Origin: Arcobacteraceae bacterium | Lineage (GTDB): Bacteria > Campylobacterota > Campylobacteria > Campylobacterales > Arcobacteraceae | Length of the DNA stretch: 22,591 nt | Reading direction: 5' to 3' | Assembly: GCA_048268245.1 (NCBI GenBank) | Contig: JBLWVX010000037.1 | Span: forward strand, 1-22,591 | Shown here: positions 3,001 through 12,000 of the stretch, one piece after another | Layout: each line of letters begins with the position of its first letter | Numbering within the stretch: the first letter of the stretch is position 1 | Position numbers: made by a program

Positions 3001-6000
3001 TATCCAATCTCTTTCATTACTTTGTATCCTAAAAGTCCAAAGATTACTTGAAGTGATACAATTGTTGCAGTTAAAGTAAATAATGACGATTTAGCAAGTG
3101 TTGCTTCAAAGTTATGGTGTAAACCAAAAGTAACTCTAATGGCAGTAATTCCTAAAAGCGTTAAAATTGGTAAGATAATCCATAAAGAAGGACTAGCTTC
3201 AATTGAAACACCATGTTCAAACATATTTTTAAATCCCATTGTAAGTTTAATAATAAGTAGTAAAATACTAACAGAAGCAAAAAATATAGCTGCAAAAATA
3301 CCAATAGCATTTACTGTGATATTGTGACTCATAGCTCCTGGTGCTGCAAAACCTACAGCTATCATAGCAAAGGCAAAGATTGAAATCATTTGAGAAAGGT
3401 TATTGTTTTTTGTAAAGTCAAAATCTCCTTTTATCAAAAGTCTTGAAAAGTAGTTCATAAATATTTTAAGACCAAAATACCCAGCAACTACAAACCCAAG
3501 AAGTGCAAATGGGAACATATATTCAACTATACTCCATAAATTTGGAACAAAAACAGCTCCTAAAACAAAACATACATTAATAGTCATAGTATATGTTAAT
3601 GGCATTGTCATTAAAGTTATTTCAGAATTTGAATTTACTAACTCTTTATATTTATTTGTATTTTTAAATAGATTAAATTGTTTAGTATTCCAAATTAGTA
3701 GTTTAAAGTGAAAATATGCAAAAACTAGTATAAATACAAGTGAAAAAGCTATCACAAAAGATAGCCATGTCCCTTCAAGTAATTTAGGCATAATAAAATC
3801 AAAGGTTGCCATAGGTACACCTTCATGTGGTACTAGAAACATTAAATACATAAAAAATGATACAGATAATCCTCCTGCTCCTAGTGCAGATAAAAAACAC
3901 ATTGGTGTGAATTTTTCTCTTAGTTTCATTTGTTTTCCTTATAATAAATTGATTTGTAATATTAGTAGAAATTATATTAAATTCTTATGAATAAGTTATA
4001 ACTTTTTATTATAATAATAGTTAATATGGCTTACTAAGCCTTTTATTGCTATAGTTTGAGTAATAAAACTAGGGTAGGTAAATGTATAAAATTTCTGTTT
4101 CAAAAGATTTATTTGAAGATATACTATTAAAAAAAACTTCTTTACTTACAAAAAATAGTTCTAAATATTGGAAAAAAGAGTTGCTTGAACCTAAAATAGT
4201 TGATGATAAAATCACATATTCAATAAAACAATTTGAAAAAATTCTTATTACAAATGGATTAGGAGAAGACAAACCACAGCTTGTAGTGGAGTGTAAAAAA
4301 GTGGATTATTCAAGCTCTTTTGATAGATTTGAATTTATTTTAGGGAAAGTCTTTGAGCAAAAAAATACTCAAGTTGAAGAAGATTATAAAGATACTTTAA
4401 TTGAACAACTTTTAAAAGAAAAAGAGTTACTTGAAGACAAAATGAATAGGGATCATCTAACCCAAGTTTACAACAGAAAAAAGATGCAAGAAGATTTAGA
4501 GCATTTTGTAACTCAAAACAACTCAAATCTTTTATGTGGTATTTTTATTGATGCTGATAGATTTAAAGGTATAAATGATAACTTTGGACATGATGCAGGG
4601 GATAGAACTTTACAGTACTTGGCAAATAAACTTCAAAATCATGCCAACTATCTAAATGGTGAAGTTTATAGATATGGTGGAGAAGAGTTTGTAATACTGT
4701 GTTTTTTGCCAAAAGAGCAAATTATTAAAAAAGTTGAAGATTTAAGAATTGATATTAAATCACAAAGAGTTTATCATAGAAATAAAGATATATCTCTTAC
4801 TGTTAGTATTGGAGTTTCTTTTTATGATGATTTTAAAGATAAAGAGTTATTACTTCAAAAAGCTGACGAAGCTGTTTATAAAGCAAAAGATAAGGGTAGG
4901 GATACAGTTGTATATGTCTAAACTAGAGTTTAAAAACTCTAGTTTTAAGATTACTTAGCGATTTGATTAGCGATTGCTTCAATATCTGCATCAGATAAAG
5001 AAGAAACTTGACCTTTCATTAAACCTTTCATTGGTCCACCGTATGAACCATCTTTGTAACCTTTCATTGCTGCAATGAAATCTGCTTTTGACAAATCTTT
5101 GATAATCTTAGATTTACCTAATGCTGCTTTTTCTCCGTTTGCACCATGACAACCAACACATTTAGCATATGGGTTTGCAAATGCAACATATGCAGTTAAT
5201 AAAGATGCTACTACTACTAATTTTTTCATAATTAAATCCTTCTACAATTTTATGATAATGTATTTTAATAAATTTTATATTAGAAGTAATTGATTCTAGT
5301 CAATTTTTGTGGAAAAAAAGTCGAAAAGATAGTTTTTATACTATCTTTTCATTATTTTGAAAGAATTTCGTTTTTTAATTCTTCTTTATTTATTTTATTT
5401 TTGTCGCTAGGAACTAGTGGGAGCGATTTTTTATAAATTATTTTTGAAGGTATCATATAAGAAGCTAGATGTTTTTTAAGTTCAAAACTTATCTCTTTAG
5501 GTGCTAGTTCACTTCTACTTGAATAAACCATAACTATTTCTTCTTCTATTTCTTCATTTGGAACAGAGAAGATTGCACATTGATCAATTTGAGGTAAATT
5601 ATTTTCAACTACTGATTCTATTTCATAAGGACTTACTCTAAATCCTCTTGTTTTTATCATATCATCATGTCTTGATACAAAGTAGAAGTAACCTTCTTCA
5701 TCTTTATAAACATAATCTCCTGTTGCTACAACTATCTCATCAGTTAATTGTCCCTCTAAATCTATTACATCTTTTAAAATTTGAATAGATTTAAATCTCT
5801 CTGCTGTTTCAACTGGTGCATTCCAGAAACCTTTGTAGATATATCCACCTCTATGAATTAACTCACCAATTTCTCTTGGTTTACACTCTTTACCTTCTTC
5901 ATTTATTACATAAAGTTCTACATCAGGTATTGCTTTACCAATTGAATCAGGTCTTATATGTATCTGAGATGGTTCAAGATAAGTTGATCTAAATGCTTCT

Positions 6001-9000: not shown

Positions 9001-12000
9001 AGTAAATATGTAATAGGACCTCCCTCAATCTCAAAAATACCAGATGCAATTGCAGTTTCTATTAGAAGTCTTGCATCAGGAGTACCATGTCTTAATGAAA
9101 TTGGTTTATTAAAATGTGTCATCATTTTTCTAGATGTTCTATATCCATGAGTTACTAATGGATAACCATTTAACATATCAACTTCATTTTCTTCTGAAAG
9201 TCTTAACATCTTTTTTGCTGTTGCATAGTCATTAAGTCTTGTATTTGAATCAACTGTACATGGAAGTACATCAACATTTGCTTTATCAAAAAACTCATAT
9301 AAGGCAAACATTTTGTCATAAGTAGGGAATCCACCTCTTGGTTGAACAAGCATTTTATCTTTTGTTTTAAAGTTATGTGAGATAAAAAGATCTTTTGAAG
9401 CATTTTTTACAAAATCTTCAACTTCTGCAAAATCAAAGTTATCTACATGCTCATTACTTAATATAATGTTTCTCTCTTCTTGTAATAAACTCATTAGTTT
9501 TTTCTACCTTCCATGAATTTCTCTAATTCATCTAAACCAGTATTTAAATCAACTTGGTGGAATACTAAATCAAAACCATAGTTTTTAAATCTTGGAACAA
9601 TATCTTCTGCACTACCTGTTCCAACTACTAAGTTACCACCAATCATAAATACTACATCATCTAAAAGATTTCCATATTTTGATTTTAAAATCTTAAGTTC
9701 TCTTGCCCAACCCTCAGCTTCACCGTTTAATGATGAGATTAATAATATATCTGCATTTGTTTCAATTACTGCATCAATAAACTCTTCTAAGTAAGTGTTA
9801 ACTCCAAGGTTAAATACCTCAAAGCCTCTTGCTTGAAGTGAAAGGTCAATTAGTCTGTTTGCTACTACGTGGATGTCGTTTCCAACTACGCCAGTTACTA
9901 CTTTCATATTTTCGTACCTAATTTTTTTATAGTTTTTATTTCTTTAAAAAGGCAAATATTTTATCTAAAAAGTGGTTATATTTTTATTAATTTATATATA
10001 AATAGACTTGATAAATAAGTGGCTTTTTTATTTCTAAAAAGTTTCACATTAATTATAAATAATAGTTTATTTATAGTGCTTTTATTCTTTTTTAAGTTTT
10101 AAATTATTAAAATAATAACACAAATTATGATTAAAATTGATTATTAGAAGATGTAAAAACTTTACTTTATTTGATTAAATTAGATTAGAAGGAAGGTGTA
10201 TTATGAAACTAAAAATTAATTTAATGCTATTAGTACTTTTAAATACTATTTTAAATGCAGGTTTCTTTGATAAAGATGTTGAATTTTTAACTAATGAAAA
10301 GCAATTGGAACGAAAATTCCCCACTAATAAAGAAGTAGTATTATCTTATAATAATGTACTTAAAAACTTAAAAACATCAGTTGTAAATATATCTACTAAA
10401 AAAAGAGTGAAATTAGGTTCTTATGCTAATCCTTTTTTTGGAGATCCTTTTTTTGACAACTTTTTTAGAGGCTTTGATGGCCCTAATTTATTTTTCCCTA
10501 AAGAAAGAGTTCAAAGTTCTCTTGGTTCAGGTGTTATTGTAACTAAAGATGGATATATTATCACAAATCATCATGTTATAGATGGTGCAGATGAGATAAA
10601 AGTATCAATCCAAGAAAGCAAAAAAGAGTATGATGCAAAAGTTATTGGAAGTGACCCTAAAAGTGATTTAGCTGTAATAAAAATAAATGCACAAAACTTA
10701 AATGCAATTAAATTTTATGATTCTGATAAAGTAAAAATTGGAGATATTGTATTTGCTTTAGGTAATCCTTTTGGTATAGGACAAACAATAACTCAAGGAA
10801 TGGTTTCTGCAACAGGAAGATCTTCTGTAGGGATAGTTGAATATGAGGATTTTATACAAACAGATGCTCCCATAAATCCAGGTAACTCAGGAGGGGCTTT
10901 AGTTAACTCAGCTGGTTATCTTATTGGAATTAATAGTGCAATAGTAAGTAAAAATGGTGGTAACGTAGGTATTGGTTTTGCTATTCCTTCTAATATGGTG
11001 AAAAATATCACAAAAGCTATAATAAATGATGGAGAATTTACAAGGGCATATTTAGGAGTTAGAATTAGTGATATAAGTGAAGATTTAATAAGCTTTTATG
11101 GTAGAAAAAATGGAGCAATTGTTACAAGTGTAGAAAGTGGAACTGCTGCTGATAAGTTAGGATTAAAAAGAGGGGATTTAATAGTAAGTGTTAATGATAA
11201 AGAAGTTAAATCTTCTTCTTCACTTAGAAATATTATTGGAACTATGACACCTAAAACACAAGTTACTATTAAATATATAAGAGATAAAAAACTTAAAGAA
11301 GGAACTGTTAGATTAAAAAGTATAAAAGATAGAACTTTTAATTCAACAGGATATGGCTATGAGTATAAAGGAATGAAAATAGAAACTTTAACAAGTCAAC
11401 TAAAAAGACAGTTAGGTATTTCTCAAAATATTAAAGGTGTTTATGTTAATAAAGTAGAGGAAAAAAGTAATTCTTATGAAGCAGGTATTTTAGCAGGTGA
11501 TATTATCATACAAGTAGAGAATAAAGAAGTAAAGGATATTGAAAGTTTTAAAGAAATGGCATTAAAAGGCTTTGGTAAAAAAAGATTTTATATTTATAGA
11601 AGAGGAGGAATAATAGTGACTGTTTTATAAAACGGTCACTATTAGAAGAGTTAAAGGTGAAAGAGTTTATTTCAATATTTCAAAAAAATAAAATTGAAAT
11701 TTTAGAAAAGTTATTAAGCAAAATAAAACTTGCTAATTTAAAAGATTTAAAAAGTGAACAGCTTTATGAAGCCTTTTTATATTTTGATGCCTTAGAAACT
11801 ATATATGCTGTAGATGAAAATTTTATTCAATTATCGCCAATTTTTAATAGAAATGATAAAAATGGAGAGTTTATAGTCAATAAAATAAAAAATACACTAA
11901 AGTCAAATACTAATTTAAAGAATAAAGAGTATTTTATAAGCTCACCTTACGTGTCAGATAAAACTAATAAATATATCGTTACTTTTGTTAAAAAAGTTGA

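Follow-up and report, generated by a model that had tools for sequence, protein, structure and literature searches.

Glutamate mutase is best known from the mesaconate pathway of glutamate fermentation, and its clostridial operon comprises glmS/mutS, glmL/mutL, glmE/mutE and methylaspartase. A non-fermentative use is seen in the haloarchaeal methylaspartate cycle, which requires methylaspartase, mesaconate CoA-transferase, mesaconyl-CoA hydratase and beta-methylmalyl-CoA lyase. In the vicenistatin gene cluster a glutamate mutase is also linked to VinN, a stand-alone ANL enzyme whose partners are VinL (a carrier protein), VinO (a PLP decarboxylase) and a polyketide synthase. Related ligases fall in TIGR03098, the exosortase-A-associated AMP-forming ligase family, which is paired with the PLP decarboxylase TIGR03099. 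Lastly, a preprint describes a route in E. coli W and Crookes in which 3-methylaspartate is converted by AspC to methyloxaloacetate and then to 2-ketobutyrate; there promiscuous enzymes or spontaneous reactions are believed to account for the later steps, the decarboxylation of 3-methyloxaloacetate being reported as spontaneous.

The window analysed here is a stretch of 22,591 nucleotides (contig JBLWVX010000037.1, assembly GCA_048268245.1) from an Arcobacteraceae bacterium whose genome is 99.28% complete in 57 contigs. The relevant features are as follows.

9494-9907, minus strand: glmS, B12-binding small subunit of glutamate mutase, 137 aa (PF02310, 2.5e-12; NF002612)
8130-9494, minus strand: glmE, catalytic subunit of glutamate mutase, 454 aa (PF06368, 4e-115; TIGR01503)
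6934-8133, minus strand: glmL/mutL-like ASKHA-type ATPase, presumed mutase chaperone or reactivase, 399 aa (PF13941, 3.2e-25)
5352-6923, minus strand: stand-alone adenylating enzyme with a VinN-like pocket, TIGR03098-related, 523 aa (PF00501, 4e-63; PF13193)
5322-5351, minus strand: terminator-like hairpin closing the operon (12-pair stem, 6-nt loop, T-run)
15329-15808, plus strand: RraA-like protein, fifth cassette gene, 159 aa (PF03737, 8.7e-35)

The first four genes form one minus-strand operon (9907-5352) in the order glmS-glmE-glmL-like-ligase, as the preliminary description had claimed: the four ORFs, each with family matches, abut or overlap, with base 9494 common to glmS and glmE, a 4-nt overlap between glmE and the glmL-like gene and a 10-nt gap between the latter and the ligase. 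The hairpin, a consensus match only, lies directly 3' of the ligase stop codon (5351-5322). The same two mutase subunits and a GlmL-family ATPase are found in the clostridial operon. However, the order here is S-E-L, methylaspartase is missing from the genome, an adenylating enzyme comes last, the GlmL is very divergent and the cassette is carried by bacteria that are by name marine Campylobacterota and Gammaproteobacteria rather than clostridia.

GlmS carries the cobalamin motif D-I-H-V-V-A and passes NF002612 (156.6 bits, cut-off 110), whilst scoring below the cut-off of TIGR01501 (99 bits, cut-off 135.8). GlmE falls slightly under the TIGR01503 cut-off (371 against 390.1 bits) and matches the Clostridium cochlearium GlmE structures 6H9E (9.4e-80) and 1CB7 (1.7e-78). 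All nine GlmE positions aligned to R66, R100, R149, H150, E171, Y177, Y181, K326 and E330, presumably glutamate and adenosyl contacts, are kept. The GlmL-like protein reaches just 70 bits against the NF040745 GlmL cut-off of 475; its motifs D-x-G-S-T-Y-F-K and D-I-G-G-A-T-T-D are conserved among 79 orthologues. From family membership and active-site conservation we infer that GlmS and GlmE constitute a true adenosylcobalamin glutamate mutase. It counts against this that a known cobalamin adenosyltransferase was found in none of 41 Arcobacteraceae genomes.

The ligase contains AMP-binding and AMP-binding_C domains. The PDB figures previously given for it were reproduced (LgrA 1.1e-63, TycA 2e-45, 3wvn 4.8e-40, 3wv4 1.3e-31). 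LgrA is not especially close, because its score sums two A domains (97.6 + 118.6 bits), and the best-scoring family is TIGR03098, matched over the full length at 445 bits (cut-off 592). The ligase belongs to the clade around this family rather than to classical NRPS modules. It has D208 and the motif TEAFRSTY in common with TIGR03098; the cassette ligase differs in standing alone, with a TIGR03099-type decarboxylase neither nearby nor above cut-off in the genome. A fold search did not discriminate between CoA ligases and A domains, and the AlphaFold model of the ligase has its lowest confidence exactly at residues 306-315.

The preliminary description had named the specificity pocket as a point to be checked, and the check comes out in favour of its proposal. 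With the pocket segment (residues 203-377) as query, VinN (3wv4/3wvn) is the best match in the whole PDB (2e-14), followed by the TycA variants 5n81 (7e-09), 7ywk and 5n82. VinN residues D230/F231/S299/K330/R331 align with D208/Y209/S280/F311/R312, so that D230, S299 and R331 are kept whereas F231 is replaced by Tyr and K330 by Phe; the short beta13-beta14 loop aligns gap-free and at equal length. Over the whole length, similarity to VinN is modest (4.8e-40). D208, Y209, S280 and R312 do not vary among 13 orthologues, and across 80 their conservation is at least 98%. In a review table, 3WV4/3WV5/3WVN are listed as VinN with (2S,3S)-beta-methyl-Asp as substrate, confirming the identity previously given, alongside an L-Asp complex of VinN and 5N81/5N82 as TycA engineered for beta-Phe; the same review gives the VinN beta13-beta14 loop as one residue shorter than in alpha-amino-acid A domains. 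The pocket thus has the VinN hallmarks for an aspartate-type acid bound as a beta-amino acid, which supports activation of 3-methylaspartate at C4. D208 and TEAFRSTY are invariant throughout the wider clade, including relatives with no mutase linkage, so what the pocket favours is an aspartate-type substrate generally and not the methyl group. The predicted tie to 3-methylaspartate comes from gene linkage, and the proposed specificity from a single solved relative and five residues aligned to it.

The RraA-like gene had been regarded as a neighbour some 5 kb away. The distance is right (5.4 kb from glmS in the window, with five inserted genes between), but it is no mere distant neighbour, being present in all 37 operon genomes and only two others of 401 Campylobacterota genomes. 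It adjoins glmS in most lineages, lies less than 700 bp from glmS in 32/36 gammaproteobacterial loci and is present in 16 of 19 Campylobacterota loci (one per genus). The RraA-like gene is an integral fifth member of the cassette, whose layout is the rraA-like gene followed, in divergent orientation, by glmS-glmE-glmL-ligase. Its product has a full-length match to the RraA / HMG-CHA aldolase-oxaloacetate decarboxylase family and clears the RraA equivalog cut-off by a narrow margin (138.3 against 136). Where E. coli RraA has R-Q it has R-D, conserved in 58 sequences, which we take to be the catalytic pair of the HMG/CHA aldolase / oxaloacetate decarboxylase enzymes. It occurs in Campylobacterota almost only alongside the mutase cassette, and we know of no RNase E in cassette-bearing Campylobacterota for an RraA to regulate. 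Moreover, an AspC-type aminotransferase (PF00155, 7.6e-81) adjoins it in 20/36 gammaproteobacterial loci. This enzyme is 75-88% identical between orders, as are the cassette genes, and Neptuniibacter and Amphritea possess it in addition to a 50-52% paralogue; it was not found in the source genome, Sulfurimonas CS5 or the Granulosicoccaceae loci. Conversion to 3-methyloxaloacetate and 2-oxobutyrate had been put forward as a possible refutation. It now appears to be part of the system, because the RraA-like gene is integral and paired with a dedicated AspC-type aminotransferase in Gammaproteobacteria.

The claimed lack of a methylaspartate ammonia-lyase was borne out: MAAL_C had no matches at E<=1 in the source genome, and in 10/10 other cassette genomes there were only partial ones (70-95 of 249 profile positions). 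The same is true of a dedicated carrier protein and condensation domain. The single PP-binding match in the source genome is an AcpP-like 80-aa frame on contig C2, a home-made carrier HMM and motif scan of 15,828 six-frame ORFs gave no further carriers, and Condensation gave nothing at E<=0.1. Partners of the VinL, VinO or polyketide synthase type were not found for the cassette ligase in this genome; the genome's best TIGR03099 match (231.6 bits, cut-off 478.45) was taken as LysA, by score. In none of 99 loci examined was an acceptor, transferase or PLP decarboxylase linked to the cassette. The haloarchaeal cycle offers a parallel in its non-fermentative use of the mutase, but methylaspartase was not found in the source genome and the cassette and the hydratase are not distributed together.

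The operon was present in 37 of 401 Campylobacterota genomes and 5 of the 14 families sampled, rather than the at least seven families previously claimed. The 37 genomes with the ligase are exactly those with GlmE, and the two always share one contig. The earlier identity range of 57-82% is close for the ligase (57-84% in this sample), but GlmE is more conserved (70-92%). Nor is this a lineage-wide trait of Campylobacterales, as the operon is absent from all 276 genomes of the two largest sampled Campylobacterota families and the same cassette is held by marine Gammaproteobacteria, often with the dedicated AspC-type aminotransferase added.

The reading that we favour, to which we give about an even chance, is that the mutase makes 3-methylaspartate, the VinN-like ligase activates its C4 carboxyl, the group is handed on, and an RraA-like/AspC branch serves as drain or outlet. 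GlmS and GlmE, aided by the GlmL-type ATPase, would convert glutamate to (2S,3S)-3-methylaspartate. The ligase would then most likely adenylate the C4 carboxyl as VinN does, a step that would also draw the unfavourable equilibrium of the mutase forward. The acyl group would pass to a thiol or amine not encoded by the cassette, for which the source genome shows no candidates other than CoA and holo-AcpP. Unused 3-methylaspartate would most likely be converted by the AspC-type and RraA-like enzymes to 3-methyloxaloacetate and then to 2-oxobutyrate and CO2, either as a built-in drain or as a second outlet; a branch is assumed because a ligase and an RraA-like enzyme on one linear path would waste ATP. 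The earlier proposal of 3-methylaspartate as an activated building block thus agrees with the mutase residues and the VinN-like pocket and loses its lineage-wide scope, the product and acceptor being ones that we only infer.

The cassette might instead serve chiefly as a 2-oxoglutarate-to-2-oxobutyrate shunt, in which the aminotransferase returns the amino group of 3-methylaspartate to 2-oxoglutarate and the RraA-like enzyme decarboxylates 3-methyloxaloacetate, for isoleucine or propionyl-CoA, leaving the ligase a side or regulatory role or another acid as substrate. All partners would lie inside the cassette, and the adjoining aminotransferase and the R-D pair fit the steps of the E. coli route, known in outline from the preprint, with dedicated genes for them. 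We nevertheless consider this unlikely: the shunt uses no ATP, yet no gene is bound more closely to the mutase than the ATP-using ligase, in occurrence and by translational coupling, and the decarboxylation reportedly needs no enzyme. The threonine dehydratase IlvA (TIGR01127) is present anyway in 41/41 Arcobacteraceae genomes (40 above cut-off) and GlmE in 27/41, patterns that are not complementary and leave a role in isoleucine synthesis unsupported. Activation of plain L-aspartate, or of some other acidic amino acid, by the ligase is improbable; this is presumed for exosortase-type relatives, and the mutase would then be linked through a shared product needing both. The clade-wide pocket motif and the L-Asp complex in the review table would suit this, but not the perfect co-occurrence with GlmE, the overlapping or abutting genes or the sub-threshold TIGR03099 match; PanD is in 41/41 Arcobacteraceae genomes, therefore no need for beta-alanine is evident and that role is unsupported.

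Distinctly improbable, too, is a CoA-dependent methylaspartate pathway replacing methylaspartase, in which 3-methylaspartyl-C4-CoA would lose ammonia, in a step modelled on beta-alanyl-CoA ammonia-lyase, to give mesaconyl-CoA for hydration and cleavage. The chemistry is sound, the amino group being beta to the activated carboxyl, and contig C7 of the source genome has a gene cluster (18578-26051) for a mesaconyl-CoA hydratase, a class I fumarase and three CitE/HpcH-like lyases, one of them in fusion with a CoA ligase. However, the hydratase is found in 22/401 genomes (19/23 Arcobacteraceae, 2/19 of family f11, none of families f4, f7 and f12), 25/37 cassette genomes are without it, 10 genomes that lack the cassette do have it, and no ammonia-lyase candidate linked to the cassette was found. 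Failing this co-occurrence, a mesaconyl-CoA role is unsupported. The mutase substrate could also be a glutamate analogue, such as a 4-substituted glutamate from the RraA-type aldolase and aminotransferase acting upstream, with another branched amino acid built. The sub-equivalog scores of GlmE and GlmS (TIGR01501) and the divergent GlmL would be consistent with this; it is highly improbable given that every glutamate-contacting residue checked is the same as in the clostridial enzyme and that GlmS passes NF002612. We see hardly any chance of ordinary glutamate fermentation with an unrecognised ammonia-lyase, despite the mesaconate pathway being the familiar setting: full-length MAAL_C is in neither the source genome nor the 10 other carriers, the conserved partners are the ligase and RraA-like protein rather than mesaconase or citramalate lyase, and the carriers, by name including Sulfurimonas, Arcobacter, Colwellia and Granulosicoccus, are marine bacteria that respire and are not known to ferment.

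Returning to activation and transfer of 3-methylaspartate, relatives of the ligase at 32-37% identity combine ligase, LGGDS[LI] carrier motif and Acyl_transf_3 membrane domain in one layout, and further ones are fusions with glycosyltransferase domains or with a PLP decarboxylase. The carrier/acyltransferase and glycosyltransferase fusions in this more distant group are a hint that the group may finally be destined for an envelope glycan. No description of the cassette was found in our literature searches. Horizontal exchange is pointed to because the gammaproteobacterial cassettes are 75-88% identical to it. The cassette is common to hundreds of marine bacteria, and the Arcobacter copy would be a self-contained, horizontally exchanged example of it.

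The preliminary description reported a four-gene operon on the minus strand from 9907 to 5352, and open reading frames, Pfam and NCBIfam all bear this out. Its genes, and the hairpin that follows them, are:

9494-9907, minus strand: glmS, 137 aa, first gene of the operon
8130-9494, minus strand: glmE, 454 aa, with one base in common with glmS
6934-8133, minus strand: glmL-like gene, 399 aa, with a 4-base overlap with glmE
5352-6923, minus strand: stand-alone adenylating enzyme (hereafter the ligase), 523 aa, starting 10 nt past the glmL-like gene
5351-5322, minus strand: terminator-like hairpin directly 3′ of the ligase stop codon

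A search of five sources with Rfam at gathering scores returned one tRNA alone and no riboswitch or leader RNA near the operon. In one compared locus (L010, G316:C16) a 4.5-kb insertion at 7179-11383 splits glmE from glmL. Its content is an ankyrin-repeat protein, a protein with a zinc ribbon and a RelE/ParE-like toxin gene on the opposite strand, and glmL is intact at 11631-12821.

Judged by the names of its nearest homologues, with 94% to Arcobacter sp. YIC-464, the source is a marine Arcobacter. Its genome stands at 99.28% completeness in 57 contigs, and the three absences reported for it also held. The methylaspartase profile MAAL_C had no match at E<=1, and in 10 other carrier genomes it gave partial matches alone, covering 70-95 of 249 positions, which we read as cross-hits to other enolase-superfamily proteins; on these grounds a fermentative mesaconate-pathway operon was judged very unlikely. 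The Condensation profile was likewise without a match, and the PP-binding profile found one AcpP-like frame. Moreover, the 15,828 six-frame ORFs of the genome were searched for a hidden carrier protein with a phosphopantetheine-site motif and a small HMM built from the carrier segments of distant ligase relatives, and nothing beyond AcpP was recovered.

Glutamate mutase, a textbook example of a radical enzyme that depends on B12, is known to serve in the fermentation of glutamate, in the methylaspartate cycle of haloarchaea and in a few antibiotics of actinomycetes. GlmE matches PF06368 (Met_asp_mut_E; 4e-115, 385 bits) and the Clostridium cochlearium enzyme in the PDB (6H9E, 9.4e-80; 1CB7, 1.7e-78), and scores 371 bits with TIGR01503 against a cut-off of 390.1. 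GlmS reaches 156.6 bits with NF002612 (cut-off 110) and 99 bits with TIGR01501 (cut-off 135.8); its cobalamin motif reads D-I-H-V-V-A where the canonical form is DxHxxG, with Asp and His unchanged and Ala in the place of Gly. The GlmL/MutL-type ATPase is divergent (PF13941, 3.2e-25; 70 bits with the GlmL equivalog against 475). Residues of GlmE were checked in a HMMER alignment to the C. cochlearium enzyme, with positions counted along the printed alignment to the structure. R66, R100, R149, H150, E171, Y177 and Y181, which we take to be the arginine claw, the catalytic Glu and the Tyr/His contacts, are identical, as are K326 and E330, presumably the adenosyl-ribose contacts. All sit in blocks at least 98% conserved among 76 orthologues. 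GlmS/GlmE looks like a true glutamate mutase.

The ligase comprises an AMP-binding domain and its C-terminal domain (Pfam). Earlier PDB figures for it were reproduced, including 1.1e-63 for LgrA as the top match; however, this value is the sum of two A domains (97.6 + 118.6 bits). Nor did the placement of the ligase nearest to nonribosomal peptide synthetases (NRPS) survive, as its best curated family is no NRPS model but TIGR03098, the exosortase-A-associated AMP-forming ligases (445.4 bits over the full length; cut-off 592.35). TIGR01733 (amino-acid adenylation) reaches 214.4 bits, below its cut-off of 317.4, and with no Condensation domain in the genome an NRPS adenylation domain was rejected. 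From the family description of TIGR03098 we would presume a neighbouring TIGR03099 decarboxylase; none of this type was found beside the ligase in 99 loci, and the best TIGR03099 match in the genome scores 231.6 bits, below the cut-off of 478.45. A fold search could not distinguish CoA ligases from A domains, returning a generic ANL fold: 4-coumarate:CoA ligase, PchD, MatB and GrsA all lie near TM 0.65 to the AlphaFold model, in which the pocket loop has a pLDDT <50.

The pocket segment alone (ligase residues 203-377) has its best PDB match in VinN, the 3-methylaspartate adenylase of vicenistatin synthesis (3wv4/3wvn, 2e-14), and the next three matches are the TycA variants 5n81 (7e-09), 7ywk and 5n82. 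In a review (PMC11253843), a table gives 5N81/5N82 as TycA engineered for beta-Phe, and VinN is described as binding (2S,3S)-3-methylaspartate as a beta-amino acid, with D230 holding the amino group and F231 and S299 as bulky residues on the pocket's opposite side. In an ungapped alignment, D230, K330, R331, F231 and S299 of VinN correspond to D208, F311, R312, Y209 and S280 of the ligase, D208 also aligning with GrsA D235, the amino-group Asp. The beta13-beta14 loop of VinN is one residue shorter than that of alpha-amino-acid A domains; it contributes an Arg for the alpha-carboxylate. Across this loop the ligase (TEA-FR-STY) aligns with VinN without a gap, R312 standing at R331 and Phe replacing K330, whereas 7ywk needs an insertion at the same site. 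Opposite the loop stand Y209 and S280. Together with D208 and R312 these do not vary among 13 orthologues of five families and are at least 98% conserved in 80. Read in this way, the pocket lends real support to a predicted activation of an aspartate-type substrate at that carboxyl which is beta to the amino group. Both D208 and TEAFRSTY are equally invariant among relatives of 30-38% identity that have no tie to any mutase, and the methyl group of the substrate is therefore inferred through gene linkage. The partners of VinN, a dedicated carrier protein and a PLP decarboxylase, were not found here, AcpP being the sole carrier match.

A search of representative proteins with the ligase yielded one close cluster (P0123, 60% identity), the output being crowded with giant NRPS proteins through the summed matches of their several A domains. 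Among longer proteins no fused form exceeds 38% identity, and hence there is no Rosetta-stone fusion of this ligase itself. At 30-38% identity, P0272 and P0340 fuse the ligase with a PLP decarboxylase, which we take to follow the VinN/VinO logic, whilst some other relatives combine ligase and glycosyltransferase domains and are named exosortase-A-associated. In P0273 and P0274 the ligase is followed by a segment with an LGGDS[LI] carrier motif and then by an Acyl_transf_3 (PF01757) membrane domain; P0276 and P0279 share the segment, which in all four is missing from the precomputed Pfam list, and their C-terminal part aligns with the Acyl_transf_3 of the former two. In layout these four resemble a machine that aminoacylates envelope glycans within one protein, and the fusions with glycosyltransferase and acyltransferase domains hint that envelope glycans are worked on via a carrier. 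The ligase of the operon has lost or never had these partners, leaving CoA, AcpP or a direct amine as candidate acceptors.

Across 401 sampled Campylobacterota genomes, the 37 with the ligase are precisely those with GlmE, and the two share one contig every time. Carriers make up 10/23 of family f1 (Arcobacteraceae), 8/20 of f4, 4/34 of f7, 13/19 of f11 and 1/4 of f12, and none was found in f2 (0/118), f3 (0/158) or seven small families of the sample. What had been proposed as a lineage-wide trait of Campylobacterales is thus patchy. When one genome per species was scanned, a relative proved to be encoded at 410 loci; by record labels, the best 80 of these comprise 42 from Campylobacterota, 36 from Gammaproteobacteria and 2 MAG contigs. 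The gammaproteobacterial carriers are Colwellia, Thalassotalea, Neptuniibacter, Amphritea, Motiliproteus, Halioglobus/Haliea, Granulosicoccaceae, and Pseudomonadales and Cellvibrionales MAGs, and named carriers include Neptuniibacter caesariensis MED92, Colwellia maritima and Arcobacter iocasae. The cassette (the operon with the rraA-like gene described below) is kept at 70-92% identity, the range of GlmE. The window's proteins are 75-80% (ligase) and 82-87% (GlmE) identical to those of Gammaproteobacteria, but only 57-65% and 70-74%, respectively, to those of f4 and f11 of the window's own order. In a quick maximum-likelihood tree built from 93 GlmE rows and rooted at the midpoint (the careful search was incomplete), Gammaproteobacteria and Sulfurimonadaceae form one group of 41 rows (SH-aLRT 91), nested in a clade with Arcobacteraceae (72 rows, support 100), with f4 and f11 outside. 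These sequence relationships point to horizontal exchange of the cassette between Campylobacterota and Gammaproteobacteria. As for the two MAG contigs, L069, labelled Candidatus Paceibacteria, has a cassette near-identical to Aliarcobacter ones (GlmE end branch 0.004), and L050, labelled Parasphingorhabdus, clusters with Halieaceae; errors of binning probably account for the two, rather than further phyla.

The following features flank the operon in the window:

2769-3929, minus strand: TsoY family (seleno)protein (NF047644, 503.8 bits)
4082-4921: GGDEF protein, a neighbour in Arcobacteraceae synteny
4951-5229: cytochrome c, a neighbour in Arcobacteraceae synteny
15329-15808: RraA-like gene (PF03737, 120.6 bits; cut-off 24.5)
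15808-16371: ChaC-like gene, directly after the rraA-like gene
16372-18588: 738-aa protein with faint TPR matches only
18605-20695: OvoA ovothiol synthase (TIGR04344, 645.6 bits; TIGR04345, 327.4 bits)
20845-21879: ankyrin-repeat protein, just upstream of the next gene
21876-22517, plus strand: hexapeptide acetyltransferase near type B chloramphenicol acetyltransferases (NF000490, 324.1 bits; cut-off 350)

Neighbouring ORFs were clustered for the window and 18 loci, one per genus. The RraA-like gene is present in 16 of these 19, mostly divergent from glmS. Within the 401 genomes it occurs in 39, namely all 37 cassette carriers and two Arcobacteraceae. Among gammaproteobacterial loci it lies at most 700 bp from glmS in 32/36, three of the other four being without upstream sequence. 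In an Arcobacteraceae-rich set (42 loci and the window) it is in the locus in 25/43, adjacent to glmS in 5 and 0.8-5.1 kb off in 20, and is absent from the locus in 18. Five genes (HtrA, unknown, EamA, DsbA-like, unknown) part it from glmS in the window, and the same insertion is found in the two closest relatives. In its product an Arg-Asp pair takes the place of the Arg-Gln of E. coli RraA and is conserved across 58 sequences; we take it to provide metal binding and enolate stabilisation in HMG/CHA aldolase and oxaloacetate decarboxylase enzymes. Fold and Arg-Asp pair would make the protein an enzyme of this HMG-CHA aldolase/oxaloacetate decarboxylase type.

Convergent with the rraA-like gene, 20/36 gammaproteobacterial loci encode an AspC-type class I aminotransferase (395 aa, PF00155 7.6e-81), which is 75-88% identical across orders, as are the cassette genes, and which in Neptuniibacter and Amphritea is an extra copy beside a 50-52% paralogue. 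It does not adjoin the cassette in Granulosicoccaceae loci, was not found in Sulfurimonas CS5 and has no counterpart in the genome studied here. In a preprint (10.1101/2025.08.26.672309), 3-methylaspartate is converted by AspC to methyloxaloacetate, which yields 2-ketobutyrate by decarboxylation. These are two steps for which the aminotransferase and the RraA-type enzyme are well suited. Across 99 loci there were no further conserved neighbours beyond single lineages; YidD, YidC, Jag, MnmE, cytochrome c, GGDEF and TsoY were rejected as cassette genes, being lineage synteny only. A DctP-type TRAP solute-binding protein (PF03480, 1e-52 in L010) lies beside the cassette in 4/19 loci (L010, L012, L013 and L019, of families f4 and f7) and could be a sign of dicarboxylate or amino-acid uptake. 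Of 81 loci, 14 include OvoA, mostly next to the rraA-like gene.

Several metabolic roles were rejected on gene content. Replacement of threonine dehydratase in isoleucine synthesis is countered by IlvA in 41/41 Arcobacteraceae genomes (40 above the cut-off), GlmE being in 27/41; TIGR01127 was used for IlvA, as PF00585 is insensitive to its short form (2/41). The citramalate synthase model gave one LeuA-like match only, below the cut-off. PanD in 41/41 Arcobacteraceae argues against a replacement of PanD as a source of beta-alanine. An obligatory mesaconyl-CoA route was dismissed because the hydratase does not co-occur with the cassette: the 22/401 genomes that have it are largely Arcobacteraceae, carriers and non-carriers of the cassette alike, and include none from f4, f7 or f12. 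In the present genome the hydratase lies in the following cluster:

C7:18578-26051 (L025:7579-15052): CitE/HpcH-like lyase, 839-aa AMP-binding ligase-HpcH/CitE-like lyase fusion, PF19315 mesaconyl-CoA hydratase, CitE-like lyase and class I fumarase

This cluster, with DUF5718 just past it at C7:26208-27071, is present in 19/23 sampled Arcobacteraceae independently of the mutase cassette and has the look of a pathway for C5-dicarboxylate CoA esters.

At equilibrium the mutase reaction lies about tenfold on the side of glutamate. In the mechanism we propose, the mutase would convert glutamate to 3-methylaspartate, and the VinN-like ligase would adenylate its C4 carboxyl, a step that would pull the mutase, and transfer the acyl group to an acceptor that lies outside the cassette. 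Together with an aminotransferase, either general or dedicated, the RraA-type enzyme would drain 3-methylaspartate to 2-oxobutyrate. We treat this drain as a branch because a linear order of ligase, aminotransferase and RraA-type enzyme would only yield 2-oxobutyrate and waste ATP. As a whole, the scheme has in our judgement an even chance of being right. Its main rival makes the drain the real purpose of the cassette, as a shunt from 2-oxoglutarate to 2-oxobutyrate, to which the match of the two enzymes to AspC and decarboxylation would lend itself; however, the shunt leaves the strictly coupled ligase unexplained, and we consider it unlikely.

Lastly, we asked how the mutase is supplied with its cofactor. 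PF01923 (PduO/EutT type) and PF02572 (CobA/BtuR type), together taken to span the known cobalamin adenosyltransferases, with PF01923 taken to cover the EutT type because the E. coli control was positive, had no match in this genome, in any of 41 Arcobacteraceae genomes, or in cassette carriers of f4, f7 and f11 (G291, G191 and G350). The adenosylcobalamin mutase is carried by 27/41 of the same Arcobacteraceae. Of the two types, the f12 carrier G091 possesses CobA and Neptuniibacter possesses both. In the carriers without a match, either intact adenosylcobalamin is taken up or a novel adenosyltransferase is at work.

A search of the literature other than subscription journals and supplements found no description of the cassette, nothing on glutamate mutase in Arcobacter or on methylaspartate in Sulfurimonas, and only passing mentions of Arcobacter with methylaspartate. 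The parts of the cassette are known families; their combination and spread are new, as the product would be. Glutamate mutase here is the core of a compact cassette of five or six genes. Tentatively, and with less confidence than in the mechanism itself, we suggest that the cassette leads to a new metabolite or envelope decoration with C4-linked 3-methylaspartate in hundreds of marine species of at least two phyla, that the RraA-type and AspC-type enzymes are a built-in 2-oxobutyrate outlet, and that the B12 enzyme of most Campylobacterota carriers operates in the absence of any known cobalamin adenosyltransferase, which would imply scavenged adenosylcobalamin or a fourth kind of adenosyltransferase. 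If the ligase truly activates 3-methylaspartate, marine bacteria would produce an undescribed 3-methylaspartyl compound, and the cassette would be a new marine sink for vitamin B12.
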